Shown: piece after piece, positions 2,296 through 64,000 of the stretch
How the letters are laid out: each line of letters begins with the position of its first letter
Position numbering within the stretch: position 1 is the stretch's first letter
Assembly: GCF_048403405.1 (NCBI RefSeq)
Contig: NZ_CP183129.1
DNA from: Escherichia coli
GTDB taxonomy: Bacteria; Pseudomonadota; Gammaproteobacteria; Enterobacterales; Enterobacteriaceae
DNA length: 64,000 nucleotides
Strand: one strand, 5' to 3'
The notes under the pieces: model-generated
Told to the model about the DNA's origin: nothing
Databases searched by the model: none
The model's input: only the letters and a program-made list of their open reading frames with translations
Position numbers and translations under genes: made by a program

Positions 2296-3465
2296 ATGTC
2301 TGTAGCCCTTATTCGTGACGGCGTCATCCGTCCATCCGAAAACGATTCGCATGTGCTTACCGCCATGCTGCCCTCGTCCTGCCCACAAAACCACGCGGCG
2401 AATATTCTGCCTTTGCCGGATGGCGCGTTAATGTGCGTCTGGTTTGCGGGAACGCAGGAAGGTATTGCCGATATTTCTGTCTGGGGATCGCGATTGCCCG
2501 CTGGCGGGATGCAGTGGAGCGATGCGGTCAAACTTTCCCACGATGACACGCGTTCAGAGCAAAACCCAGTGCTGTTTCTCGCGCCGGATAACGTGCTGTG
2601 GCTGCTATGGACCGCACAAATATCCGGGAATCAGGACACCGCCATCGTCCGCTACCGTAAGTCAGACGACCTCGGACAAACCTGGGGCGAGATTGCCACG
2701 CTGCTCGATAAACCCGGCACGTTCATTCGCCAGCCGATCACGGTGCTTGATAACGGCAACTGGCTGCTGCCCGTCTTTTATTGCCGTACCCAACCCGGTG
2801 AAAAATGGGTCGGCAATGATGATATCAGCGCAGTGAAAATTTCCGCTGACGGTGGTCACTCCTGGCGCGATGTCGTGGTGCCGCAAAGTCTCGGCTGCGT
2901 TCATATGAATATCACAATGCTGCACGACAGTACGTTGGTTGCTCTCTTTCGAAGCCGTTGGGCAGACAACATCTATATCAGCCATTCAGTGGACAACGGC
3001 GAGAGTTGGTCGGTGCCGCAAGCTACCGAATTGCCCAACAACAATTCGTCTATTCAGGTAACGACGCTTGCCAGCGGCGAACTGGCGCTGGTGTACAACG
3101 CGATGAGTGCGGCAGGCGCAGTAGAACGTCGCGCGTCGCTTTATGACGAAATCGACGATGGCGACGACAGCCGCAAAGAACCGACAGCCGTCGGACGCTC
3201 CGCTTTCTGGGGGGCCCCACGCGCGCCGATGACGGTAGCGATTTCTGCCGATGGTGGGAAAAGCTGGCCGTGGCGGCGCAATCTCGATGAAGGCGACGGC
3301 TACTGCATGACCAACAATTCCCTGGAAAAGCTAAATCGTGAGTTCTCCTACCCCAGCATCAAACAAAGCCCGGACGGTACGCTACATATCGCTTACACCT
3401 GGTGGCGTCAGGCCATCAAGTACGTGCGCATCTCCCCCGAGTGGGTTAAGGGGCAGGCATCATGA
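2296..3465 (+). CDS. BNR/Asp-box repeat sialidase-like beta-propeller protein (GH33-like), apparently cytoplasmic
   Basis: 389 aa with four Asp-box motifs (SDDLGQTW, SADGGHSW, SVDNGESW, SADGGKSW). The N-terminus has no hydrophobic signal peptide. GGAG RBS. Confidence 0.65.
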   Translation: MSVALIRDGVIRPSENDSHVLTAMLPSSCPQNHAANILPLPDGALMCVWFAGTQEGIADISVWGSRLPAGGMQWSDAVKLSHDDTRSEQNPVLFLAPDNVLWLLWTAQISGNQDTAIVRYRKSDDLGQTWGEIATLLDKPGTFIRQPITVLDNGNWLLPVFYCRTQPGEKWVGNDDISAVKISADGGHSWRDVVVPQSLGCVHMNITMLHDSTLVALFRSRWADNIYISHSVDNGESWSVPQATELPNNNSSIQVTTLASGELALVYNAMSAAGAVERRASLYDEIDDGDDSRKEPTAVGRSAFWGAPRAPMTVAISADGGKSWPWRRNLDEGDGYCMTNNSLEKLNREFSYPSIKQSPDGTLHIAYTWWRQAIKYVRISPEWVKGQAS

Positions 3466-3932
3466 TTATCGGTAATCTCAACCATTTGTCGCTGGCGGGG
3501 CTTCCCGCCTGGGTGAGAAATATTCTGCTGTGCCCGGAGTGTTCGTTATCGGCGTTATCCGCCAGAGAGGACGGTCGCTGGCAACCTGAAGGATGTCGGT
3601 GGTTCTGCACGCTGGGAACTTCAGACACGCAACCCGCCGAACTCCGCCATACGGAGTATCACCATCTGTGGGCCGATATCCAGGTGGTGATTACTGGTTG
3701 TGAGGGCATTAATGCGGGAACGCGGCCCATCGCTCGCGAAAACGATGAAGAACGTAAGCCCGATCTGTTTATCGCCCCATCCCCTGAAAACAGTGTCGCC
3801 ATCACTCTACACCCCGGTGATTTCGCCGTCTTTATGCCTGAGGAACCTCACCAGGCGCTGTGCGCGATTGGCGCGGCTACGTCAGTACGCAAAGCGGTCT
3901 TTAAGGTACCGCGCGACATGCTGGAAGCCTAA
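3462..3932 (+). CDS. YhcH/YjgK/YiaL (DUF386) family protein, NanQ/EbgC-like
   Basis: 156 aa. C-terminal GDFAVFMPEEPH closely matches the conserved motif of E. coli YhcH. Start codon overlaps the upstream stop (ATGA), suggesting translational coupling. Confidence 0.65.
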   Translation: MIIGNLNHLSLAGLPAWVRNILLCPECSLSALSAREDGRWQPEGCRWFCTLGTSDTQPAELRHTEYHHLWADIQVVITGCEGINAGTRPIARENDEERKPDLFIAPSPENSVAITLHPGDFAVFMPEEPHQALCAIGAATSVRKAVFKVPRDMLEA

Positions 3933-10878: not shown

Positions 10879-11631
10879 ATGACCATTAAAAATGTAATTT
10901 GCGATATCGACGGCGTGCTGATGCACGATAACGTCGCCGTACCGGGTGCAGCGGAATTTTTGCACGGGATTATGGATAAAGGCCTGCCGCTGGTGTTGCT
11001 GACCAACTATCCTTCGCAGACCGGGCAAGATCTGGCGAACCGCTTTGCCACTGCCGGTGTCGATGTACCGGATAGCGTGTTTTATACCTCCGCGATGGCA
11101 ACCGCCGATTTCCTGCGTCGCCAGGAAGGCAAGAAAGCATATGTGGTGGGCGAAGGCGCACTGATTCATGAACTGTACAAAGCCGGTTTCACTATTACCG
11201 ATGTGAACCCTGATTTTGTGATTGTTGGCGAAACGCGTTCCTACAACTGGGACATGATGCATAAAGCAGCCTATTTCGTCGCTAACGGTGCACGCTTTAT
11301 CGCCACCAACCCGGACACCCACGGGCGCGGTTTTTATCCCGCGTGTGGCGCGTTGTGTGCAGGCATCGAAAAAATCTCCGGGCGTAAACCGTTCTATGTT
11401 GGTAAACCGAGTCCGTGGATCATCCGCGCAGCATTAAACAAAATGCAGGCGCATTCGGAAGAAACAGTGATTGTCGGCGATAACCTGCGTACCGATATTC
11501 TGGCGGGCTTCCAGGCCGGTCTGGAGACGATTCTGGTACTCTCTGGCGTTTCGTCGCTCGACGATATCGACAGTATGCCATTCCGCCCCAGCTGGATTTA
11601 CCCATCGGTCGCTGAAATCGACGTTATCTGA
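10879..11631 (+). CDS. nagD: HAD-superfamily UMP phosphatase
   Basis: 250 aa; DxDG HAD motif (ICDIDGVL); synteny after nagC. Confidence 0.9.
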   Translation: MTIKNVICDIDGVLMHDNVAVPGAAEFLHGIMDKGLPLVLLTNYPSQTGQDLANRFATAGVDVPDSVFYTSAMATADFLRRQEGKKAYVVGEGALIHELYKAGFTITDVNPDFVIVGETRSYNWDMMHKAAYFVANGARFIATNPDTHGRGFYPACGALCAGIEKISGRKPFYVGKPSPWIIRAALNKMQAHSEETVIVGDNLRTDILAGFQAGLETILVLSGVSSLDDIDSMPFRPSWIYPSVAEIDVI

Positions 11632-11636
11632 ATAGC

Positions 11637-11670
11637 AACCACGCCTCAGGGCGTGGTTTCTTATTTTTAC
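11637..11670 (+). terminator. Rho-independent terminator after nagD
   Basis: Hairpin CCACGCC-tca-GGCGTGG followed by a T-rich run. Confidence 0.55.
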
Positions 11671-11887
11671 CCATCATTAAAATTCACCCATTCAATAAAA
11701 CCCGCCAAAAATTATCGATTCATCAATAAATACACCTCCACACCCTACCCTTTTTCATTAATCAGCAATCACCATTACGTTTTTTATTTACCCCCTGCCA
11801 AATCGCTTGCGTACAGTGCTGCTTTGCGGCATTTTTTTAAACAAGCAAACACAACAAGCAACAAATACCAGGTTAACGGAGAAGGTT

Positions 11888-14672: not shown

Positions 14673-14757
14673 ATGAAATCCGAAAAAATCACCCATACAT
14701 AGTGGTCGTTAATGACCAGTGATACATTGCCTGCCTTCATAACAAAAGGATCTTGCA

Positions 14758-15342
14758 ATGAATTATCAGCTATTCTCACCATTCTTTACCAAAGTCATCA
14801 TGCTGCTTATCGCATTGCTTTGCATTGTTCTTGCCTCATTTGGTATTTCTGCCCCATTTTGTTACATCGTTTTTATCGGCATCATTTTCCCCGTTGCTAT
14901 ATCAATGCGCATACACCGTCTCAATGAAACAGGAACAGCACTCACACTAACCGAAAGCTCACACTGGATCGTTTACATCCATGGTTTTCCAGCTGAGGAA
15001 CAACGTGAAGTTTTGAAAAACCCCTGTTTCTGGTCAACAGAAAGAGTGAAACAGTTTTTCCTTCGCGGTCTTGCTGGCAAGGTTATTCTTCAACTCGCCT
15101 GCCTTGCACTTCTGGTCAATGAATATTTCCGCTCAACACCAGGTTCCGGGCAAGACTTACTCGCAGCAGGCGTGCTGTTTTTTATTTTGTTTTCGATAAG
15201 CAAAAATTTCTGGACGATGTATCTTCTCGCCACAGATAAATGGCAGTGCGAATCCCTGACCACCACCAGCGGTAGCCTTTGGTATCAGGGATTTCTGTGT
15301 AAAGGAAACAGAAGAGTTACGCTGTTTTCGCGGCTGGTGTAA
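14758..15342 (+). CDS. Hypothetical small polytopic membrane protein (194 aa), AT-rich, no recognisable family
   Basis: ORF with AAGGA RBS 8 nt upstream; about four predicted hydrophobic helices. G+C roughly 40 percent by eye against about 50 percent for neighbours. Stop lies 6 nt from the convergent ubiF stop. Confidence 0.45.
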   Translation: MNYQLFSPFFTKVIMLLIALLCIVLASFGISAPFCYIVFIGIIFPVAISMRIHRLNETGTALTLTESSHWIVYIHGFPAEEQREVLKNPCFWSTERVKQFFLRGLAGKVILQLACLALLVNEYFRSTPGSGQDLLAAGVLFFILFSISKNFWTMYLLATDKWQCESLTTTSGSLWYQGFLCKGNRRVTLFSRLV

Positions 15343-15348
15343 CAGCTA

Positions 15349-16524
15349 CTACAACCCTAACGCATATTTCAGCGCCTGACGTTTCAACATGCCAGCACGC
15401 TCCGCCGCCATCAAACCAAGATTACGCACAAAACGCAGTGGTGGCAGATTATTGCTGAATCCGGCATAGAACAGATCCATACCGCTCTGCATAATGAAGT
15501 TATCCGCCATGCGCCGCATCTGGTAACGCTTGAGGATCGGATAACTGGCCCACGCTTCGCCATAGCTGCGAGCGTTGACCAGAACGTCAATCAGGGCATC
15601 GACATCACGATAACCAAGATTCACCCCCTGCCCCGCCAGCGGATGGATGGTATGCGCGGCATCGCCCACCAGCGCAAGCCCCGGCTGCACATACTGCAAC
15701 GCATGGCGGCGCGTCAGCGGAAAAGCGCCAGCGGCAAGCGGTGTTACATACCCAAGACGCGACGGGAAATGCTTCGCGATTTCCGCCTGTAACTGCGCCA
15801 TATTCATATTCTGCAACTGGCGAATGCGTGCCGGAGAGTCATACCACACCAGCGATGCCCAGTTATCAAACAACGGCAGAAACGCACGAGGTCCATCCGG
15901 GGTAAATTGCTGCCAGGTGCTGTCGCCGGGATCGTTCTCACACTGTACGCTAATTAACATACACGACTGTGCATACTGCCAGGCATGAACGCCAATTCCC
16001 GCCATCTGCCGCACCTGGGAATTTGCGCCGTCGGCACCAATCACCAGCTTCGCGCGGATCGTTTCACCGCCCTTCAGTTCCAGCTCCTGAAGATCATTAT
16101 GGCGATGCAGCGCAATCAGCGAGCCTGGCACACGTAACGTTACTTTCGGATGCGCTTCCAGCGCCTGCCACAGCGCCTGTTGCAGAACAGTGTTTTCCAC
16201 CATGTAGCCAAGCACAGGCAGCTTTAATTCGGCTGCATCAAACACCACATGCGCCGTTTCCCACTCCCAAGTTTCCAGTCTGCGGTAAGGATGGCAACGC
16301 ATAGCCTGTACCGCGTCCCAGACGCCTAAACCTTTAAGCAATGATACCGAAGCCGCACTGATCGCCGAGATCCGCACGTCCGGCTGGCTATCAACAACAA
16401 ACGTCGCAGATTGGGCATGTTCGATAACCGTTACCGAAAATCCGTGCTGAGCCAGTCCCAGCGCCAGTGCGCCGCCGACCATTCCTCCGCCGACAATGGC
16501 AATTTCCGTTGGTTGATTTGTCAT
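15349..16524 (-). CDS. ubiF: FAD-dependent ubiquinone biosynthesis hydroxylase
   Basis: 391 aa from MTNQPTEIAIVGGGMVGG (Rossmann GxGxxG); recognised as UbiF. Confidence 0.9.
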   Translation of the reverse strand: MTNQPTEIAIVGGGMVGGALALGLAQHGFSVTVIEHAQSATFVVDSQPDVRISAISAASVSLLKGLGVWDAVQAMRCHPYRRLETWEWETAHVVFDAAELKLPVLGYMVENTVLQQALWQALEAHPKVTLRVPGSLIALHRHNDLQELELKGGETIRAKLVIGADGANSQVRQMAGIGVHAWQYAQSCMLISVQCENDPGDSTWQQFTPDGPRAFLPLFDNWASLVWYDSPARIRQLQNMNMAQLQAEIAKHFPSRLGYVTPLAAGAFPLTRRHALQYVQPGLALVGDAAHTIHPLAGQGVNLGYRDVDALIDVLVNARSYGEAWASYPILKRYQMRRMADNFIMQSGMDLFYAGFSNNLPPLRFVRNLGLMAAERAGMLKRQALKYALGL

Positions 16525-25896: not shown

Positions 25897-26013
25897 TCAC
25901 TCTGGCGCGCATACCCAAGTGCGCGCCATCTCACGCTTTATCGTTTCACTCCTCGTATCTGTTACATCCTGGCGTTACCCTTGTCGCAAAGAAGCACACA
26001 ACAAGGAGCAACA

Positions 26014-26949
26014 ATGGCACTGCCAATTCTGTTAGATTGCGACCCAGGTCATGACGACGCTATCGCAATAGTTCTTGCCCTCGCCTCACCAGAGCTTGAT
26101 GTCAAAGCAATTACGTCTTCCGCCGGAAACCAGACTCCAGAAAAAACCTTACGCAATGTTCTGCGTATGCTGACCTTGCTTAATCGCACCGATATTCCGG
26201 TAGCAGGCGGCGCGGTAAAACCGTTAATGCGTGAGTTGATTATCGCGGACAATGTGCACGGCGAAAGCGGTCTCGACGGCCCGGCATTACCGGAACCGAC
26301 GTTCGCACCGCAAAACTGTACGGCGGTGGAGCTGATGGCGAAAACGCTGCGTGAAAGTGCGGAACCTGTCACGATTGTGTCTACCGGACCGCAAACTAAC
26401 GTTGCCTTGCTGCTCAATAGCCATCCGGAACTGCATAGCAAAATTGCCCGTATCGTGATTATGGGCGGCGCAATGGGGCTTGGTAACTGGACGCCAGCCG
26501 CCGAGTTTAATATTTATGTTGACCCGGAAGCGGCAGAAATTGTTTTCCAGTCAGGGATCCCGGTGGTGATGGCCGGTCTGGATGTTACTCACAAAGCACA
26601 AATTCACGTTGAGGACACCGAGCGTTTCCGCGCGATTGGCAACCCTGTTTCAACCATTGTTGCCGAACTGCTGGATTTCTTCCTCGAATATCATAAAGAC
26701 GAAAAATGGGGCTTTGTCGGCGCACCGCTGCATGACCCATGCACCATCGCCTGGCTGTTAAACCCGGAGTTGTTTACCACTGTTGAGCGCTGGGTTGGCG
26801 TGGAAACACAAGGGAAATATACCCAGGGTATGACGGTTGTTGATTATTATTATCTGACCGGCAATAAACCGAATGCTACTGTAATGGTCGATGTTGATCG
26901 TCAGGGCCTTGTTGATTTACTGGCTGATCGTCTGAAATTTTACGCTTAA
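26014..26949 (+). CDS. rihA: Pyrimidine-specific ribonucleoside hydrolase
   Basis: 311 aa from [15 protein letters not shown] (nucleoside hydrolase motif) with AAGGAG RBS. Confidence 0.92.
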
Positions 26950-26993
26950 TCACTCGCCGGATGACATCACGCCATCCGGCACCACTCATTTCA

Positions 26994-27476
26994 TTAAGGC
27001 TCGAACGGGCGTCTCTGGAACTGGTCATGACCACATTTCGGGCATAGCGTCAGCACTTCCGGTGTGTAGATCGGGAGATGGAAATGACATTTCTCGCAGA
27101 CCAGATTACCCAGCCCTACCACTTCTCCGCTGTGATAAACCCCGTGATGATTGAGGTCCTGGAAAACTTCGCGCCATTCAAGCTGCGTTTTATCGGTGAT
27201 GTCTGCCAGCTCCTGCCACAAGCTTTCTTTAATCACCCGCATAAAGACGCTGTCAGACTCTTCTTTCAGGCTCTCTTCATAGCTCATGGCGAACTCTTCC
27301 AGGTCACGTCTGACAGCTCGCGTCAGCTCATCGACTTCGGTTCGCGTTAACTCCCCTGTTTTTATTACGCGCTCGCGCGCCTGTTCCACCAGTGCGTCGA
27401 TATCACGTTCGCCATTGCGCAGGCGTTCGCTCAGTGACGCGACCAGTTCACGGTAATATTGAGCAACCTTGTTCAT
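26994..27476 (-). CDS. ybeL: DUF1451 zinc-ribbon protein YbeL
   Basis: 160 aa; C-terminal CxxC...CPKC pairs; convergent with rihA. Confidence 0.85.
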   Translation of the reverse strand: MNKVAQYYRELVASLSERLRNGERDIDALVEQARERVIKTGELTRTEVDELTRAVRRDLEEFAMSYEESLKEESDSVFMRVIKESLWQELADITDKTQLEWREVFQDLNHHGVYHSGEVVGLGNLVCEKCHFHLPIYTPEVLTLCPKCGHDQFQRRPFEP

Positions 27477-27710
27477 CGTTTCATCTCCCGGGTCGTTAAC
27501 TGACTATAATAATAGACGTTCTTTGTTCCTTGCTTTGCTAATACGCCCACAAACTCTGTAAATTAATGTATGAATAATCCGGGCATCATTTCAACGTCGA
27601 ATGCGCGAAAGGCTGTTTTGACGCGGACGTTTGGGCTATGCTATGCGGATCTGAAAAACCACCTCAACGCTACATTTGTAGCCGTATTGAAAACAGGACC
27701 ACTGGCTGCC

Positions 27711-30307: not shown

Positions 30308-30889
30308 GTGCGATATCTGGCAACATTGTTGTTATCTCTGGCGGTGTTAATCACCGCCGGGTGTGGCTGGCATCTGCGTGATACCACGCAGGTTCCTTCC
30401 ACTATGAAGGTCATGATCCTGGACTCAGGCGATCCGAACGGGCCATTAAGCCGTGCGGTGCGTAACCAGTTACGTCTGAATGGTGTCGAGTTGCTTGATA
30501 AAGAAACCACGCGTAAGGACGTTCCATCCCTGCGTTTGGGTAAAGTGAGCATCGCGAAAGATACCGCATCGGTATTCCGTAACGGTCAAACAGCAGAGTA
30601 TCAGATGATCATGACGGTCAATGCGACCGTGTTGATCCCCGGCCGTGACATCTACCCGATTAGCGCCAAAGTCTTCCGTTCGTTCTTCGATAACCCGCAA
30701 ATGGCGTTAGCGAAAGATAACGAACAAGACATGATCGTAAAAGAGATGTACGACCGTGCTGCCGAACAGCTGATTCGTAAGCTGCCAAGCATCCGTGCTG
30801 CGGATATTCGTTCCGACGAAGAACAGACGTCGACCACAACGGATACTCCGGCAACGCCTGCACGCGTCTCTACCACGCTGGGTAACTGA
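30308..30889 (+). CDS. lptE: LPS assembly lipoprotein LptE
   Basis: 193 aa; GTG start; lipobox LITAGC. Confidence 0.9.
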
Positions 30890-44951: not shown

Positions 44952-44980
44952 AAAAAAAACCCGCTGATTAAGCGGGTTTT
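44952..44980. terminator. Bidirectional terminator between crcB and cspE
   Basis: A-tract, CCCGCT-gatta-AGCGGG hairpin, T-tract. Confidence 0.65.
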
Positions 44981-44999
44981 GAATTCTTGCTGACGTATC

Positions 45000-45209
45000 T
45001 TACAGAGCGATTACGTTTGCAGCAGAAGGGCCTTTGGCACCGTTAGTGATTTCGAACTCTACGCGCTGACCTTCAGCAAGAGTTTTAAAACCATTAGTCT
45101 GGATTGCAGAGAAGTGTACGAACACGTCTTTGCTGCCGTCTTCCGGAGTAATGAAACCGAATCCTTTGGACTCATTAAACCACTTAACGTTACCTTTAAT
45201 CTTAGACAT
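45000..45209 (-). CDS. cspE: Cold-shock-domain protein CspE
   Basis: 69 aa from [20 protein letters not shown]; ORF-track N-terminal extension rejected. Confidence 0.95.
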
Positions 45210-45383
45210 CAAAATTACCTTTACATGAAAAATAGACACAAATGCTGTGTCGGTTACCAGTACACCAATTGTGGTACGCTTTGTCCAGTGCAACTTTACT
45301 AAAAAGTGATAAAAGTCGCGTTATTTTTGATGTTACTTATTTTAGTTATTGATTTTAAAGAAGTTACTAAAACTTCATTTGTC

Positions 45384-45944
45384 TCAAAACTGAAAGCGCA
45401 TCCAGGCAAAGTACACATTGCCATTGTTGTAGGTACCCGGAATGTAGGTCATCTGAAAAGTCACTGGGCCATAACCCACGGAGGCCAATGGCAGTAGAAC
45501 CGGGAGAGGGATGTAATTCCAGTTATCGCGTGCCGTTACGCCAGCGGTGAATCCCAGACCTAAATGAAAATTTTCATCCGCCAGCGGTCGCCAGGTACTT
45601 TCCCATCCGTATCCGGCAATCGGTTCCCATTTGTTCCACGAGTCCTTAAATGCCATGGCATACAGGCCATGCCAGTTTCCTTTTTCATCCCAACGCGACT
45701 GACCAAAACCGCCACCCCACGGTCGCTCGTTATAGCGATCGGTTTTTTCTTTGTCGTAAGCGAAACGTGCATGCCAGGTGATGGCAGGAATATATAAATC
45801 ATAATGTTCAGGCTGTTGCCAGGTTTGTGCAATATTTTCTCTAAACGTTGTCATCCACTCATCTGCGTTAGCAAAAACTTTACCAACGCTGATTAACTGA
45901 ATAAAAACAAAGGAAAAGATAGCGACATATTGACTCACGTTCAT
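45384..45944 (-). CDS. pagP: Lipid A palmitoyltransferase PagP
   Basis: 186 aa from an internal ATG (MNVS...) with signal peptide; outer-membrane beta-barrel enzyme. Confidence 0.9.
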
Positions 45945-46532
45945 TTGTGACCATAAAACATTTATCAAAAATCTACTACTAGCATAGCAAAGCTACAATT
46001 AACATAACCTTAATAGCCCCAACATGAAGAATAATCTGAATAGCTGCTCTATTTATTTCCGCTTGTTCAAGATAAATATTTCCGCGCATCGATTAAAGAT
46101 GATTCGTCGTTTTCTGCGATGGGAATAGTCAAAAAAGAAAAACCAAGTATTTTTTGATGACAAAATGCAACCAAGGAAAAATTTCTTTATTTTTTAATTG
46201 GATACAAAAATCACCTTAACGAAGAATATAATATATATCGTCAACCCATGCTCATGGCAGATTATTTTCTGAGCACGCAACCGCAGCTAACACCATTGCT
46301 ATTAACAAATTTGCATCAATCCGCCATCAATTTACACACATTATTATGTGGTAATTGCCAAACGCTAAATATGCGTTTTGTTATCTATGTATAAAAACAG
46401 CAACTTCAATGTCTTAATGGCAGTTTTTCTTGATTTTAATCAGCATTCACCGCCAATTTATTGGGCATATTTTTTCCTTAAGTTTTAGGAATTTTTTATT
46501 ATTTACTTTGGGGCCTGGAGACAGGAAAAATT

Positions 46533-47918
46533 ATGCTGACATTCATTGAACTCCTTATTGGGGTTGTGGTTATTGTGGGTGTAGCTCGCTACATCATTAA
46601 AGGGTATTCCGCCACTGGCGTGTTATTTGTCGGTGGCCTGTTATTGCTGATTATCAGTGCCATTATGGGGCACAAAGTGTTACCGTCCAGCCAGGCTTCA
46701 ACAGGCTACAGCGCCACGGATATCGTTGAATACGTTAAAATATTGCTAATGAGCCGCGGCGGCGACCTCGGCATGATGATTATGATGCTGTGTGGCTTTG
46801 CCGCTTACATGACCCATATCGGCGCGAATGATATGGTGGTCAAGCTGGCGTCAAAACCATTGCAGTATATTAACTCCCCTTACCTGCTGATGATTGCCGC
46901 CTATTTTGTCGCCTGTCTGATGTCTCTGGCCGTCTCTTCCGCGACCGGTCTGGGTGTTTTGCTGATGGCAACCCTGTTTCCGGTGATGGTAAACGTTGGT
47001 ATCAGCCGTGGTGCAGCTGCTGCTATTTGTGCCTCCCCGGCGGCGATTATTCTCGCACCGACTTCAGGGGATGTGGTGCTGGCGGCGCAGGCTTCCGAAA
47101 TGTCGCTGATTGACTTCGCCTTCAAAACGACGCTGCCTATCTCAATTGCTGCAATTATCGGCATGGCGATCGCCCACTTCTTCTGGCAACGTTATCTGGA
47201 TAAAAAAGAGCACATCTCTCATGAAATGTTAGATGTCAGTGAAATCACCACCACTGCTCCTGCGTTTTATGCCATTTTGCCGTTCACGCCGATCATCGGA
47301 GTGCTGATTTTTGACGGCAAATGGGGTCCGCAATTACACATCATCACTATTCTGGTGATTTGTATGCTGATTGCCTCCATTCTGGAGTTCATCCGCAGCT
47401 TTAATACCCAGAAAGTTTTCTCTGGTCTGGAAGTGGCTTATCGCGGGATGGCAGATGCGTTTGCTAACGTGGTGATGCTGCTGGTTGCCGCTGGGGTATT
47501 CGCTCAGGGGCTTAGCACCATCGGCTTTATTCAAAGTCTGATTTCTATCGCCACCTCGTTTGGTTCGGCGAGTATCATCCTGATGCTGGTATTAGTGATC
47601 CTGACAATGCTGGCGGCAGTCACGACCGGTTCAGGCAATGCGCCGTTTTATGCGTTTGTTGAGATGATCCCGAAACTGGCGCACTCTTCCGGCATTAACC
47701 CGGCGTATTTGACTATCCCAATGCTGCAGGCGTCAAACCTCGGTCGTACCCTGTCACCCGTTTCTGGCGTAGTCGTTGCGGTTGCCGGGATGGCGAAAAT
47801 CTCACCATTTGAAGTCGTAAAACGCACCTCGGTGCCGGTGCTTGTTGGTTTGGTGATTGTTATCGTTGCTACAGAGCTGATGGTGCCAGGAACGGCAGCC
47901 GCGGTCACAGGCAAGTAA
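46533..47918 (+). CDS. dcuC: Anaerobic C4-dicarboxylate transporter DcuC
   Basis: 461 aa polytopic protein; synteny next to dpiA. Confidence 0.92.
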   Translation: MLTFIELLIGVVVIVGVARYIIKGYSATGVLFVGGLLLLIISAIMGHKVLPSSQASTGYSATDIVEYVKILLMSRGGDLGMMIMMLCGFAAYMTHIGANDMVVKLASKPLQYINSPYLLMIAAYFVACLMSLAVSSATGLGVLLMATLFPVMVNVGISRGAAAAICASPAAIILAPTSGDVVLAAQASEMSLIDFAFKTTLPISIAAIIGMAIAHFFWQRYLDKKEHISHEMLDVSEITTTAPAFYAILPFTPIIGVLIFDGKWGPQLHIITILVICMLIASILEFIRSFNTQKVFSGLEVAYRGMADAFANVVMLLVAAGVFAQGLSTIGFIQSLISIATSFGSASIILMLVLVILTMLAAVTTGSGNAPFYAFVEMIPKLAHSSGINPAYLTIPMLQASNLGRTLSPVSGVVVAVAGMAKISPFEVVKRTSVPVLVGLVIVIVATELMVPGTAAAVTGK

Positions 47919-48639: not shown

Positions 48640-50266
48640 TAGGTTTCACTTTCGGAATATAGATTGAAAATAAGGTACCGCAGGGATCATTATCTTCGAG
48701 AGTGATAACACCACCGCAGCGCGTTACGTAGCTGGCAATCAAGTACAACCCAATGCCATGTTCACCGGGCTCGTCAGCACGCGTACTGACACCCTGCTCA
48801 AATATTTTGTCTCGTAGAGACTCTGGAACGCCGCAGCCCTGATCGGCGACTTCAATCACCACATCATCGCCTTCATCGCTGAGGAATAATTCAACGATCT
48901 TGTTTCCTTCATCGCTACGTAGGCTGGCTTCGAAGGCGTTATCAAGTAAATTGCCAACAATGGCTGCAAACTCGGTGCTGTCCAGTCCTGGCGGCAGTTG
49001 CGAAAGCTGACTTCCGGGGACGATGACCATTTTTAGCCCCAGTTCGCGGGCGCGCTGCACTTTACCAAAAAGCAGCCCCGCCACCTGGCGATCGGCAAAC
49101 GCCTCGCGCAGGCTATCAATAAGCTGTTGCTGGGCCTGAGACTCCCCCTGCACCATCGCCAACACGCGATCATACTCTTTCATCTGCAACAGACCATTGA
49201 GCGTCGACATCCAATTGAGATGCTCGTGTCGCAATGTGCGCAGGCTCTCGACGTATTGTTTAATTTGCGTCAGTTGCGCATTGAGGGTGGATATTTCGTC
49301 TTTACTACGAAAGCTGATAATGGCCCCCAGCAAATCATCACCAGAACGAATAGCTTCCCGGTTGGCAATAACGCTCAGACCGTTAAAGTTCGCCACCACA
49401 TCCTGTCGTTTTTCATCAATCTGTTCGGTAAAGAAATCGGCGGGCCTGACCACTTCAGCAATGGGTTTACCCAACCATTGCCGTCCGGGGGAGCTCAGCC
49501 CCAGCATCTTTCTTGCGTTACGATTGATGGCGGTAATGTAACCGTGCGGATCCACCGCAATGAGCCCTTCATAAACCGAACTAAACAGCGCCTCTTGCTG
49601 ACGGACCACGCGTGCGATTTGCTTTGGCTCCATGCCCATCATCTGCCGACGGATATGCGCGGCCAGGAACCACGACAGCAACATCAGAATCCCTAACAGC
49701 ACGACAAACACGCCAGCCATCGGTAATAAAAACTCAGCCCGCCAGCTATCGATTTTACTCACCAGGTAGCCAATCGACACCACGCCGATGACTTTTCCAT
49801 CGTCATCAAAGATTGGCGTTTTGGCACGCATCGCCATGCCAATTGACCCTTTCCCGGTGATGAAGTAGCTCTCCCCTTTCTCCAGCGCGCCCGGTTTGGT
49901 GAACTGCATAGGATAACCAATTTTCTCCGGATTAGGATGGTAAAGACGAATCGAGTGCCGATCGCCAATCACCACATAATCGAAATCAGTATCTCTTTGT
50001 AATTTGTCAGCGATGGTCGCCAGCCTCTTGTAGTCACGCGTTTTCACTGCGCTGATGATACTGTCATTAGAAGCAATAATTTTTGCCTGATTCATTGCCA
50101 TGTCGCGCACATGAAGCGTTAAATAGTCCTCAAAACTGGCCGTAAAATATTGCGCCAGGGCTGCAATGACAAATATTGAGAACACCAGAATCAGCAAAAA
50201 GATACGCAGCGGAAATGCCAGTCTTTGGAAAAATGCAAACTGTTTATTCTCGTTAAGCTGCAACAT
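48608..50266 (-). CDS. dpiB: Citrate-sensing histidine kinase DpiB (CitA)
   Basis: 552 aa from internal ATG (MLQLNENKQ); two transmembrane segments, periplasmic sensor, HisKA/HATPase domains. Confidence 0.92.
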   Translation of the reverse strand: MLQLNENKQFAFFQRLAFPLRIFLLILVFSIFVIAALAQYFTASFEDYLTLHVRDMAMNQAKIIASNDSIISAVKTRDYKRLATIADKLQRDTDFDYVVIGDRHSIRLYHPNPEKIGYPMQFTKPGALEKGESYFITGKGSIGMAMRAKTPIFDDDGKVIGVVSIGYLVSKIDSWRAEFLLPMAGVFVVLLGILMLLSWFLAAHIRRQMMGMEPKQIARVVRQQEALFSSVYEGLIAVDPHGYITAINRNARKMLGLSSPGRQWLGKPIAEVVRPADFFTEQIDEKRQDVVANFNGLSVIANREAIRSGDDLLGAIISFRSKDEISTLNAQLTQIKQYVESLRTLRHEHLNWMSTLNGLLQMKEYDRVLAMVQGESQAQQQLIDSLREAFADRQVAGLLFGKVQRARELGLKMVIVPGSQLSQLPPGLDSTEFAAIVGNLLDNAFEASLRSDEGNKIVELFLSDEGDDVVIEVADQGCGVPESLRDKIFEQGVSTRADEPGEHGIGLYLIASYVTRCGGVITLEDNDPCGTLFSIYIPKVKPNDSSINPIDR

Positions 50267-58943: not shown

Positions 58944-59298
58944 TCCCATCTGCACAAGCGATAACTCGCTTTGCCCAGAGGATGCACTCGCATCCTCTTT
59001 CCGCTCAAATATCAACCAGATTTATCATTTTGCTCTTAAGCGCAGCATTCTAATCTGAACTGGTTATTCATCTGCGGAACCTCATATGAGCGAAGCTCTC
59101 GGTATCACTGCATTTTATATATTCATAGCAGCAATTATTGTTGCTGCAGTGCTATACCTTGAACAACGCTGGTAGCGCCTGGTTTTATTTATTTTCCAGC
59201 TCAATAGCAAATTCAGATCAAATCAGCCTCGCAAATCATAGATTCATAACCAATAATGTGCTGTTATGTATACATGCAAAAACAAGGAGAGAATGCTT

Positions 59299-63265: not shown

Positions 63266-63473
63266 AAGATAATTCATGGATGGTTGAAATATATCCCTGT
63301 TTTTCAACCATCCTAAAAAAGCATGAATTGCTCGCTCTGCCCTAAGTGGCTGTGCTATTTTAGAAAAACTTAACTCTGAGTTAAGCAAAAAAACATAATA
63401 CAAATAAATACAACAGCAACATTATTGAACAAATGAATGATTTATAGAAGAGATAATATAACGGAGTATGTTA

Positions 63474-64000
63474 TGGCGAATCTTTATGACCTAAAAAAAT
63501 TTGATCTGAATTTACTGGTCATATTTGAGTGCATTTATCAACACCTCAGCATTAGCAAAGCAGCAGAATCATTATATATAACGCCATCTGCCGTTAGTCA
63601 GTCGTTACAACGTTTACGTGCGCAATTTAATGACCCGTTATTCATTCGCTCAGGGAAAGGTATCGCGCCGACTACGACAGGGTTAAATCTGCATCATCAT
63701 CTTGAGAAAAATCTCAGAGGCATTGAACAAACGATCAATATTGTTAATAAGTCTGAGCTAAAGAAAAATTTTATTATCTACGGCCCTCAGCTTATTTCTT
63801 GTACTAATAACAACATGCTAATCCGCTGTCTTAGACAAGATACTTCAATCGATATAGAATGCCATGACATACTGCTTTCAGCTGAAAATGCCGAAGAACT
63901 GTTGGTTCAACGCAAAACTGACCTGGCAATTACACTACAACCAGTAATTAGCCGCTCTGTCATCTGCATGCCGTTACATACTATTCGCAATTCTCTTATA
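63474..64000 (+). CDS. ybdO: LysR-family transcriptional regulator, N-terminal part (continues beyond window)
   Basis: ATG at 63474 opens a frame with LysR HTH (ITPSAVSQSLQRLR) running to the window end. Confidence 0.75.

Follow-up and report, generated by a model that had tools for sequence, protein, structure and literature searches.

What does the AT-rich DNA between pagP and dcuC do in Escherichia coli? The two genes are transcribed divergently around positions 45945-46532 of the window (the whole stretch of 64,000 nt of E. coli DNA that was analysed), pagP on the minus strand and dcuC on the plus strand, and neither the list of open reading frames nor the RefSeq annotation of strain 144 and K-12 places any feature between them. 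An earlier note had read the gap as the dcuC regulatory region, large enough to hide a small RNA or a peptide. The region is very probably a control region shared by both genes, with a short functional stretch at either end and, between these, an AT-rich, H-NS-coated spacer that is largely unconstrained. The attribution to dcuC stands in so far as there is a dcuC promoter with an FNR site, but the region is equally that of pagP, and the dcuC core is confined to its final ~115 nt (46420-46532). The first ~75 nt hold the pagP promoter, and ~400 nt of spacer separates the two.

The composition of the region is distinctive, with a G+C content of 0.32 compared to about 0.50 in the flanks. The AT-richness claimed earlier for a noncoding stretch at 45969-46532 is therefore genuine, as are the A/T tracts, which are 5-6 nt long, but its left boundary is not, as the annotated start of pagP (an ATG on the minus strand) lies at 45944. 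The boundary at 45968/45969 stems from a TTG-extended reading frame, and the intergenic region consequently runs from 45945 to 46532. The spacing between the two genes is 585-588 nt in all sampled E. coli. The intergenic alignment of these strains contains ~5 indel events against 57 substitutions, which we take to be unremarkable by typical ratios, and a constraint on spacer length is not claimed. Published K-12 coordinates were converted by adding 777 to U00096.2 positions to obtain U00096.3 positions, and by subtracting the latter from 702501 to obtain window positions. The features are collected in Table 1.

Table 1. Features of the pagP-dcuC intergenic region and its surroundings, in window coordinates (a dot in the strand column means that no strand is assigned).
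Feature	Position	Strand	Remarks
pagP coding sequence (lipid A palmitoyltransferase), context	45384..45944	-	RefSeq annotation of the 100% identical strain 144
Published H-NS ChIP-chip enrichment (K-12)	45441..47134	.	Two peaks: 45441-46140, 46166-47134
Entire pagP-dcuC divergent intergenic region	45945..46532	.	588 nt, G+C 0.32
pagP -10 hexamer TATGCT, predicted	45981..45986	-	12 nt downstream of the PhoP-box-like repeat
SlyA-like palindrome TAGCAAAGCTA	45985-45995	-	Overlaps the predicted pagP -10 TATGCT
PhoP-box-like direct repeat TATTAAggttaTGTTAA, 11-bp period	45999..46015	-	pagP promoter; also resembles an ArcA repeat
34-codon ORF, chance, lineage-specific	46024..46128	+	Shuffles, allele counts, no Shine-Dalgarno
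Fast-evolving spacer centre	46100..46300	.	Discrete haplotypes 10-18% apart within E. coli
48-codon ORF, also chance	46248..46394	+	Broken in several lineages
Block conserved within E. coli, 5' of the dcuC promoter	46301..46419	.	Low diversity, pi 0.03
Direct repeats CATCAAT	46314-46320, 46325-46331	.	Candidate regulator sites
Palindrome CACAT-N4-ATGTG	46337-46350	.	Candidate regulator site
Palindrome AAACGC-N7-GCGTTT	46360-46378	.	Candidate regulator site
FNR site TTGATTTTAATCAG	46430..46443	.	Consensus TTGAT-N4-ATCAA, one mismatch; published FNR ChIP-seq peak
dcuC -10 hexamer CATATT, predicted	46466..46471	+	Within conserved block TTTATTSGGCAYATTTT
dcuC 5' leader, 55 nt	46478..46532	+	Shine-Dalgarno GGAGACAGGA at 46517-46526
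dcuC coding sequence (anaerobic C4-dicarboxylate transporter), context	46533..47918	+	ORF list, RefSeq annotation

Two promoters in H-NS-bound DNA

The dcuC end is the better defined of the two. The search for FNR half-sites (TTGAT-N4-ATCAA) that had been proposed for this region yields TTGATTTTAATCAG with a single mismatch, and Table S6 of PMC3688515 gives this very 14-mer as an FNR site predicted at 655281 (U00096.2) and marked by an FNR ChIP-seq peak; it is a study that places dcuC among the directly FNR-activated genes and credits an earlier study of dcuC (Zientz 1999, its ref. 137). In a 10-sequence alignment of Escherichia, Citrobacter, Salmonella and Enterobacter, the site is invariant save for its first base. 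More widely, 58 of 80 Enterobacteriaceae loci have TTGAT-N4-ATCAN about 90-105 nt 5' of the dcuC start codon; judged by eye, the one-base variant TTGAT-N4-GTCAG takes its place in most of the others. The SMRT-Cappable-seq start site of b0621 (dcuC) at 656023 (U00096.3; PMC6131387 supplement) corresponds to window position 46478, give or take 1 nt depending on the coordinate convention. The centre of the FNR site (46436.5) is thus at -41.5 (±1) relative to the start of transcription. The predicted -10 hexamer, CATATT, lies 22 nt past the FNR site and 6 nt ahead of the published start and is kept across genera; a sigma-70 ChIP-seq peak at 655235 (U00096.2; PMC3688515) falls at about 46489. The start codon of dcuC is preceded by a Shine-Dalgarno sequence (GGAGACAGGAaaaattATG), and single-sequence folding of the leader against shuffles gave no unusual fold (z = +1.09).

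Nothing essential distinguishes this arrangement from that of class II FNR promoters: the near-consensus FNR site lies ~41.5 bp upstream of the start, the -10 is weak and no -35 is evident, and in K-12, according to published data, the site is occupied by FNR in vivo and the gene is activated by it. Under anaerobiosis, FNR bound to TTGATTTTAATCAG in the class II activator position would recruit sigma-70 RNA polymerase to the weak -10, and the mRNA made from this promoter would carry the 55-nt leader in an unstructured form. The block immediately 5' of the promoter contains several candidate regulator sites (Table 1) and, in the same 10-sequence alignment, is not conserved beyond Escherichia.

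At the other end, a second sigma-70 ChIP-seq peak (655742 in U00096.2; PMC3688515) maps to about 45982, and these are the only two places in the region to which sigma-70 peaks map in the published K-12 data. In E. coli, pagP depends on PhoPQ, and inputs from EvgAS and RcsB/GadE have also been reported (PMC6106083). Three putative SlyA sites have been described in its promoter, and an hns mutation derepresses pagP 18-fold (PMC4147861). An ArcA site was predicted upstream of dcuC/crcA, yet binding was not found by ChIP (PMC3798270). On the minus strand at 45999-46015 is the direct repeat TATTAA-ggtta-TGTTAA, the half-sites of which match the PhoP consensus at 4/6 and 5/6 positions. That consensus is the direct repeat (T/G)GTTTA-N5-(T/G)GTTTA, overlapping the -35 region. 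The divergent gene order and the PhoP-box-like repeat are conserved across Enterobacteriaceae; nearly all genera show a GTTAAG-N5-ATTNA core, but a strict pattern is found in only 6 of 49 loci. PhoP may use this repeat, and the start of pagP transcription probably lies just downstream of the predicted -10, at about 45974.

Both promoters lie within DNA that is enriched for H-NS in K-12, where Table S3 of PMC3688515 lists peaks at 654590-655558 and 655584-656283 (U00096.2); genomic SELEX also flags the pagP-dcuC spacer for H-NS (PMC3946193). The occupancy right at the dcuC promoter is ambiguous, since Table S6 gives "None" for nucleoid-protein overlap at the dcuC FNR site, whereas an H-NS peak covers it (PMC3688515). 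Many FNR sites in H-NS-enriched regions are masked, and the dcuC site is occupied despite its location in one. Being AT-rich here, and H-NS-occupied and hns-derepressed according to the K-12 literature, the pagP-dcuC spacer is an H-NS-silenced region. It probably works as a platform for H-NS rather than just tolerating it.

By this mechanism, H-NS would silence the pagP promoter, with PhoP, SlyA and RcsB/GadE acting as counter-silencers, much as at the H-NS-silenced PhoP promoters of the Salmonella pagC/ugtL type. The likeness extends to the AT-rich, H-NS-bound upstream DNA, the combined SlyA and PhoP inputs, the 18-fold derepression without hns and the 11-bp-period direct repeat just upstream of the -10. 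On the other hand, pagP is an ancestral core gene and not a horizontally acquired one, and its silenced spacer is common to a second, FNR-dependent promoter.

A fast-evolving spacer centre

Why should the two promoters be separated by so much DNA? Judged by sequence comparison, the ~400 nt spacer is under little or no sequence constraint and evolves fastest in its central 200 nt. Nucleotide diversity in the centre (46100-46300) is 0.126, compared to 0.046 at third codon positions, or about 2.7 times as high. K-12 and O157:H7, for instance, differ at 0.8% of third positions in the flanks and by 16.3% in the centre, while the coding flanks of the sampled genomes are 97.5-99.9% identical over their whole length. 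The divergence is limited to the central ~200 nt, and no haplotype has lost either promoter core. A 2.7-fold rate over third codon positions exceeds what simple loss of constraint would predict, and the genealogy of the centre is decoupled from that of the flanks.

Could the centre instead be a site of adaptive regulatory divergence, in which haplotypes spread by recombination and set the thresholds of H-NS/SlyA silencing for pagP or dcuC? Several observations fit this idea. The haplotypes fall into at least 6 discrete classes, and identity to the centre is discontinuous across genomes (285 at ≥99%, 18 at 95-99%, 3,269 at 90-95% and 1,804 at 80-90%), whereas for a control segment in dcuC, 300 nt away, almost all genomes exceed 95%. 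The decoupling from the flanks goes in both directions, site patterns are mosaic, and the excess of diversity over third positions points the same way. However, an HKA-like comparison shows that divergence from the outgroup is raised in proportion to polymorphism (pi/D of 0.46, against 0.47 and 0.33) and favours unconstrained drift of the centre. Because divergence and polymorphism are raised by the same factor, a high neutral rate fits better than balancing or diversifying selection, and balancing selection on the centre is accordingly not favoured. Moreover, haplotypes are stable within clones (the O157:H7 genomes sampled show 100% identity, and a band of ≥99% contains 307 genomes), the transition/transversion ratio of the centre resembles that of the flanks, and equally divergent 200-nt windows occur elsewhere in the same 64 kb. 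Adaptive divergence is thus an unlikely explanation of the centre.

Horizontal regulatory switching, with divergent intergenic alleles between near-identical E. coli genes, has reportedly been described by Oren et al. (PNAS, 2014) and Thorpe et al. (2017). The pagP-dcuC haplotypes are similar to such alleles in being discrete and divergent between near-identical flanks, with a genealogy that differs from that of the flanks. They differ in that only the central ~200 nt diverges and the promoter cores are kept in all haplotypes, and in that polymorphism and divergence rise together, which fits drift better than the import of foreign alleles. Two other sources of variation were considered and rejected: a mobile or repeated element, as no genome has more than one copy of the centre and long inverted or direct repeats were not found, and ongoing hypermutation or phase variation, as the sampled O157:H7 genomes share an identical haplotype.

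Candidate products of the spacer

If the spacer drifts, does it also encode something? The most serious candidate is an unannotated small RNA in the direction of pagP, equivalent to Ssr31 of Shigella flexneri 2a 301. Ssr31 was assigned to the same intergenic region in the same orientation (pagP/dcuC, 694,274-693,980, ~295 nt) by promoter and terminator prediction, and was scored "Yes" by RT-PCR (PMC4782007). In the window, the minus strand at 46150-46299 folds somewhat better than its shuffles (z = -2.33), but z-scores ranged from -2.3 to +1.6 across 8 single-sequence folds, and one such value among 8 is unremarkable. Since the RT-PCR was not strand-specific, the Ssr31 signal could also be read-through from the pagP or dcuC leader.

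The remaining evidence argues against such an RNA. The terminator scan came up empty on the minus strand and gave one weak hairpin, at 46360-46378, on the plus strand; a promoter scan of 45800-46700 gave a single promoter-like match, located inside dcuC. At a permissive threshold, the best Rfam hits to the spacer in the window (E-values 3.6 and 10) scored far short of the gathering cutoffs, and at the gathering threshold there were no matches in 10 related loci. RNAalifold covariation terms were +0.8 and -0.13 kcal/mol for the two strands, with 1-2 compensatory pairs out of 77-88, so that covariation is absent despite abundant variation (57 segregating sites in the underlying alignment). The candidate interval would also take in the least conserved sequence of the region. 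Published maps made under standard growth conditions contain no internal start sites in the spacer, the portion of the Cappable-seq data covering 653,077-656,393 (U00096.2) on the K-12 plus strand includes no start in the pagP direction, and the sigma-70 peaks are confined to the two known promoters. Ssr31 itself rests on prediction and non-strand-specific RT-PCR, and its terminator, a conserved structure and a start site were not found here. A small RNA in the spacer is therefore unsupported by the Rfam, terminator, folding and two-strand covariation analyses; an Ssr31 equivalent is very unlikely, and the earlier suggestion of a hidden small RNA finds no backing, with sigma-70 peaks and start sites only at the two ends.

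A sigma-54 promoter driving NtrC-dependent transcription towards dcuC from TGGCAG at 46418-46423 or 46255-46260 is more doubtful still, indeed highly improbable. Genomic SELEX gave peaks at the dcuC/pagP spacer for RpoN holoenzyme, for NtrC and for both together, albeit at a low intensity of 35-50% (PMC8743547). The two TGGCAG copies are part of a 15-nt direct repeat, and a TGGCAG-type sigma-54 site is listed for the paralogue dcuD (PMC2831329). However, when tested against TGGCAC-N5-TTGCW, both motifs fail in spacing and in the -12 element (TGGCAG-N6-TTGAT at 46418 and TGGCAG-N5-TTTCT at 46255), and the candidate was rejected on these grounds. In addition, the copy at 46418 overlaps the FNR site, the copy at 46255 is destroyed in K-12 (TATTAG), the background in which the SELEX was done, and the mapped dcuC start fits the sigma-70/FNR promoter.

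There remain the short reading frames. The 34-codon ORF is located on the plus strand at 46024-46128, with exactly the translation given before. Could it be a young, lineage-specific small-protein gene, its start codon born by an A-to-G change? It is intact in the window, the 55-nt context around its ATG is identical in 137 genomes, and de novo micro-ORFs are known to arise from AT-rich intergenic DNA (PMC11188072). However, chance alone yields such frames: when the 588 nt were shuffled 2,000 times with dinucleotides preserved, ATG ORFs of 34 codons or more turned up in 85% of the shuffles (mean 1.7 each), and 24% had at least as many as the real sequence, which has 3. In place of the ATG, K-12 and most E. 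coli have ATA, as do the cryptic-clade Escherichia L005, E. whittamii and Escherichia sp. E1V33; 157 of 5,426 genomes were found to carry the G allele that creates the start codon, against at least 3,618 with the K-12-type ATA context. L084 and L085 carry the ATG, but an in-frame TAG ends the frame after 13 codons. The ORF has no Shine-Dalgarno-like sequence ahead of it (ccccaacATG) and no mapped start site upstream on the plus strand, the DNA around it, between the pagP promoter and the spacer, is bound by H-NS, and its peptide, never called in any annotation, is absent from a collection of 15 billion proteins and has no Pfam match.

The 48-codon ORF fares no better. Its start codon is lost in O157:H7, it is frameshifted in L084 and L085 and broken in E. 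whittamii and E1V33, and only a few old automatic annotations label it "hypothetical". Its segregating sites show no 3-nt periodicity (6/6/7 by phase), and no conserved ORF was found on either strand of 45945-46532. The small-protein gene was rejected on the shuffles, Shine-Dalgarno check, allele counts, frame conservation, periodicity, peptide look-up and Pfam search together, and is hardly credible. The hidden peptide of the earlier note has thus dissolved into one frame that hangs on an unconserved minority SNP and another that is broken in several lineages.

A probably drifting spacer between two conserved promoters

Taken together, the ~400 nt between the promoters presumably encodes nothing, and its central 200 nt would drift faster than synonymous-like sites. 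Since the spacer stays AT-rich while drifting, it would keep recruiting H-NS. The 34- and 48-codon ORFs would be by-products of this drift, and as chance products they make the finding an ordinary one. There is a small chance that the centre is a hotspot of regulatory evolution, in which recombining haplotypes tune the H-NS silencing of pagP, and perhaps of dcuC, by lineage. If so, the thresholds for lipid A palmitoylation, and through it for evading innate immunity, would differ between lineages. As a minor variant of this idea, a young 34-codon micro-ORF, or an internal promoter peculiar to certain strains, may have arisen in one haplotype; the K-12-type sequence ATGACA-N17-AATTAT, for instance, has AATTTC in place of its second element in the window.

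The pagP-dcuC control region is already known, and the analysis has little significance beyond good annotation. The FNR site, -10, start site and 55-nt leader of dcuC are placed precisely, the likely pagP promoter is placed in this strain, and the short ORFs should stay unannotated. Few 200-nt stretches of the 64-kb region are as polymorphic as the spacer centre; as its haplotypes are discrete and do not track the flanking genes, it would be a convenient typing marker. It also provides a natural experiment on whether spacers bound by H-NS are constrained in composition rather than in sequence.

The pagP-dcuC region and its two promoters

The region between pagP and dcuC is very probably a divergent control region, in which two short functional ends flank an H-NS-coated, AT-rich spacer and the short ORFs are by-products. 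The earlier note had called it most likely the dcuC regulatory region; it is regulatory and does hold the FNR promoter of dcuC, but it does not serve dcuC only, since the region is divergent and the pagP promoter lies at its other end. It is intergenic, as the note had it, but the left boundary of 45969 belonged to a TTG-extended pagP ORF, and the true edge is at 45945. The window is E. coli; from 45900 to 46600 it matches strain 144 at 100% identity and K-12 at 95.6%, and G+C in the spacer is 0.32 vs about 0.50 in the flanking genes.

Features of the pagP-dcuC region and its neighbourhood (window positions)
Feature	Position	Strand	Remarks
cspE mRNA and 5' leader	44952-45394	minus	Rfam cspA thermoregulator RF01766, 123.9 bits, E = 9e-33
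pagP	45384-45944	minus	
H-NS peak (K-12 655,584-656,283)	45441-46140		
pagP-dcuC intergenic region	45945-46532		588 nt, G+C 0.32
TATGCT	45981-45986	minus	12 nt downstream of the direct repeat
Direct repeat TATTAAggttaTGTTAA	45999-46015	minus	11-bp period
34-codon ORF	46024-46128	plus	
Centre of spacer	46100-46300		
H-NS peak (K-12 654,590-655,558)	46166-47134		
48-codon ORF	46248-46394	plus	
CATCAAT direct repeats	46314-46331		11-bp period
Short palindromes	46337-46350, 46360-46378		
FNR site TTGATTTTAATCAG	46430-46443		one mismatch to FNR consensus
dcuC	46533-47918	plus	

The search for FNR half-sites suggested in the earlier note was positive. In an alignment of Escherichia, Citrobacter, Salmonella and Enterobacter, the site found is invariant except for its first base, and a conserved TTTATTSGGCAYATTTT block comes after it. 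TTGAT-N4-ATCAN occurs in 58 of 80 Enterobacteriaceae loci, in most cases some 90-105 nt before the dcuC ATG, and most of the remaining loci, judged by eye, have TTGAT-N4-GTCAG at a similar position. The site is the same 14-mer, CTGATTAAAATCAA (655,281, U00096.2), for which Myers et al. (2013) list an FNR prediction together with a ChIP-seq peak, and they place dcuC among the directly FNR-activated genes (PMC3688515). A class II arrangement would place the start site near 46478, and the published dcuC (b0621) start maps to 46478 (656,023 in U00096.3; SMRT-Cappable-seq supplement, PMC6131387). The offset from U00096.2 to U00096.3 was checked three times: +776 from the ahpC start sites, +777 from the FNR 14-mer and +777 from the cspE promoter signal (656,472 vs 657,249). 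The resulting dcuC leader is 55 nt long and unstructured (z = +1.09). The CATCAAT repeats and palindromes lie 100-165 nt upstream of the dcuC start, in a block that is conserved among E. coli; they look like regulator sites by sequence and are candidates, and two window-specific SNPs (46351 and 46362) change them.

The core of the direct repeat at the pagP end, GTTAAG-N5-ATTNA, is visible in nearly every genus compared. The repeat resembles the PhoP box consensus, and it resembles an ArcA repeat too. Upstream of dcuC/crcA, an ArcA site was predicted by Park et al., who saw no ChIP binding there (PMC3798270). Only two sigma-70 ChIP-seq peaks are tabulated for the spacer, at 655,235 and 655,742 (U00096.2; PMC3688515), which map to about 46489 and 45982, the two promoters. 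The plus-strand part of the K-12 Cappable-seq table has no pagP-direction start between 653,077 and 656,393, as would be expected if pagP is silent under standard conditions. (The strongest plus-strand start listed locally, score 431, is at 656,590 in U00096.2, about 75 nt into the cspE coding sequence; unlike SMRT-Cappable-seq and the sigma-70 ChIP peak, the table has no start at the cspE promoter position, 656,472.) Known inputs to pagP are PhoPQ, EvgAS and RcsB/GadE (PMC6106083); in an hns mutant pagP is derepressed 18-fold, and putative SlyA sites are reported (PMC4147861).

The two H-NS ChIP-chip peaks of Myers et al. (Table S3, PMC3688515) together span all of the spacer and run into the 5' parts of pagP and dcuC, and genomic SELEX also flagged the spacer as H-NS-bound (PMC3946193). 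K-12 is the source of all the occupancy and start-site data; the divergence between it and this strain is about 5% across the spacer as a whole and 10% in the centre.

The fast-evolving centre

Why is the centre of the spacer so variable? Between E. coli haplotype classes it is 83-91% identical, vs 97.5-99.9% for their flanking coding sequence. Species-wide, the 201-nt centre matches the window at 99% or more in 285 genomes, at 95-99% in 18, at 90-95% in 3,269 and at 80-90% in 1,804; the corresponding numbers for a control dcuC segment 300 nt away are 2,028, 3,381, 2 and 0. The O157:H7 haplotype as query gave similarly discontinuous identities, with 100% among the O157:H7 genomes sampled. A mobile repeat was ruled out, the centre being single-copy in every genome.

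A set of 12 genomes in which both flanking genes are complete falls into at least six discrete haplotype classes, 10-18% apart, and pi in this set is 0.126 for the centre vs 0.046 for the third codon positions in pagP and dcuC (2.7 times). The genealogy of the centre is decoupled from these flanks: K-12 and O157 differ by 0.008 at third positions and 0.163 in the centre, O157 and strain CAVP766 by 0.042 and 0.015. Mosaic site patterns indicate recombination. Divergence to outgroup Escherichia (0.252 vs 0.096-0.147) is raised by the same factor as polymorphism, so the polymorphism-to-divergence ratio of the centre (0.46) matches those of third positions (0.47 and 0.33). This HKA-like comparison speaks for a high neutral-like rate rather than for balancing selection. 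Adaptive regulatory divergence, by which the haplotypes would differ in function, is unlikely. G+C stays at 0.31-0.34 in every haplotype, and any constraint on the centre appears to be on composition rather than sequence.

For divergence, the centre ranks at about the 99th percentile of 200-nt windows across the 64 kb, but it is not unique. Windows within 11551-11850, 16051-16500, 30451-30750, 49901-50150 and 63301-63950 show a like divergence of 7-25% against K-12 and/or O157:H7. By BLAST, 14676-15348 (673 nt) and 59016-59280 (265 nt) have no counterpart in the homologous region of K-12 or O157:H7. At about 26013-27477 the strain appears to lack the approximately 7.8-kb ybeQ-ybeR-djlB-ybeT-ybeU-djlC-hscC block that sits between rihA and ybeL in both. 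IS5 (IS5D) near gltI in K-12 is absent from the window.

The spacer itself varies in other ways. In E. coli 23AR1101, most of it (equivalent to about 45945-46460) is replaced by an IS5-family, ISKpn26-like element (2874-3854 of that locus, L003); the intact spacer is missing from about 40-50 of 5,426 genomes, and in K-12 it has been used as a reporter-cassette insertion site (PMC6379681). Most genera have spacers of 281-470 nt. Those of L016, L033, L044, L045, L046 and L076 (loci from Enterobacter, Citrobacter amalonaticus S646 and Mangrovibacter) reach 690-900 nt with G+C of 0.38-0.47, which suggests inserted sequence; Rfam found no family in the five of these six that were scanned, all but L045.

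Search for hidden genes in the spacer

A small RNA, as the earlier note had envisaged, was not borne out. At a permissive threshold, Rfam found nothing better than chance in the spacer (best E-values 3.6 and 10, far under gathering scores); at gathering threshold it found no family in the homologous spacer of 10 related loci from other genera. Each of the 10 other genera scanned has RF01766 next to pagP. A simple scan found no terminator-like sites on the pagP strand and no promoter-like sites inside the spacer, and eight RNA folds had z-scores from -2.3 to +1.6. In an alignment of nine Escherichia sequences over 46040-46420, with 57 segregating sites in 46100-46300 among its E. coli members, RNAalifold covariation terms were +0.8 and -0.13 kcal/mol, with just 1-2 compensatory pairs of 77-88. 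Ssr31, an sRNA predicted in the Shigella flexneri spacer in the pagP direction, was RT-PCR positive (PMC4782007), but the RT-PCR was not strand-specific and no sequence support was found for the prediction; an Ssr31-like sRNA here is quite improbable. A sigma-54 promoter, to which RpoN/NtrC SELEX peaks in the spacer point (PMC8743547), failed the motif test and is more doubtful still.

The 34-codon ORF exists, with the translation quoted in the earlier note, but the short ORFs are by-products and not beyond chance: in 2,000 dinucleotide-preserving shuffles, 85% had one or more ATG ORFs of 34 codons or longer (mean 1.7 each; the real sequence has three). No Shine-Dalgarno sequence precedes the 34-codon ORF, whereas dcuC has one. 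K-12 and three other Escherichia species or clades have ATA in place of the ORF's ATG; counted with a 55-nt probe, each 28-mer seed forced to cover the polymorphic base, the G allele is present in 157 of 5,426 complete genomes (137 with identical context) and the K-12-type A allele in at least 3,618. Two strains with the ATG have an in-frame TAG after 13 codons. In O157:H7 the 48-codon ORF no longer has its start codon; two other strains carry a frameshift in it, and in other Escherichia it is broken. By codon phase its 19 segregating sites split 6/6/7, vs 0/0/6 in dcuC.

The 34-residue peptide does not occur in a collection of 15 billion sequences, and Pfam has no match to any of five peptides from the spacer. 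The 48-residue peptide, in its K-12 form, is found only in a few old automatic annotations, as 'hypothetical protein'. RefSeq annotates nothing between pagP and dcuC in K-12, strain 144 or 15 other E. coli genomes. RefSeq locus tags jump one number from pagP to dcuC in strains 144, Combat11I9 and DA33135 (e.g. RS19085 then RS19095); a small feature may once have been annotated there and later withdrawn, which would fit those old calls. With chance-level ORFs, no Shine-Dalgarno sequence, a minority ATG, broken frames and no Pfam match, the hidden peptide of the earlier note falls away, and that the 34-codon ORF is a young micro-ORF is barely credible. Read as a divergent control region, the pagP-dcuC region belongs to a kind of object that is already understood.
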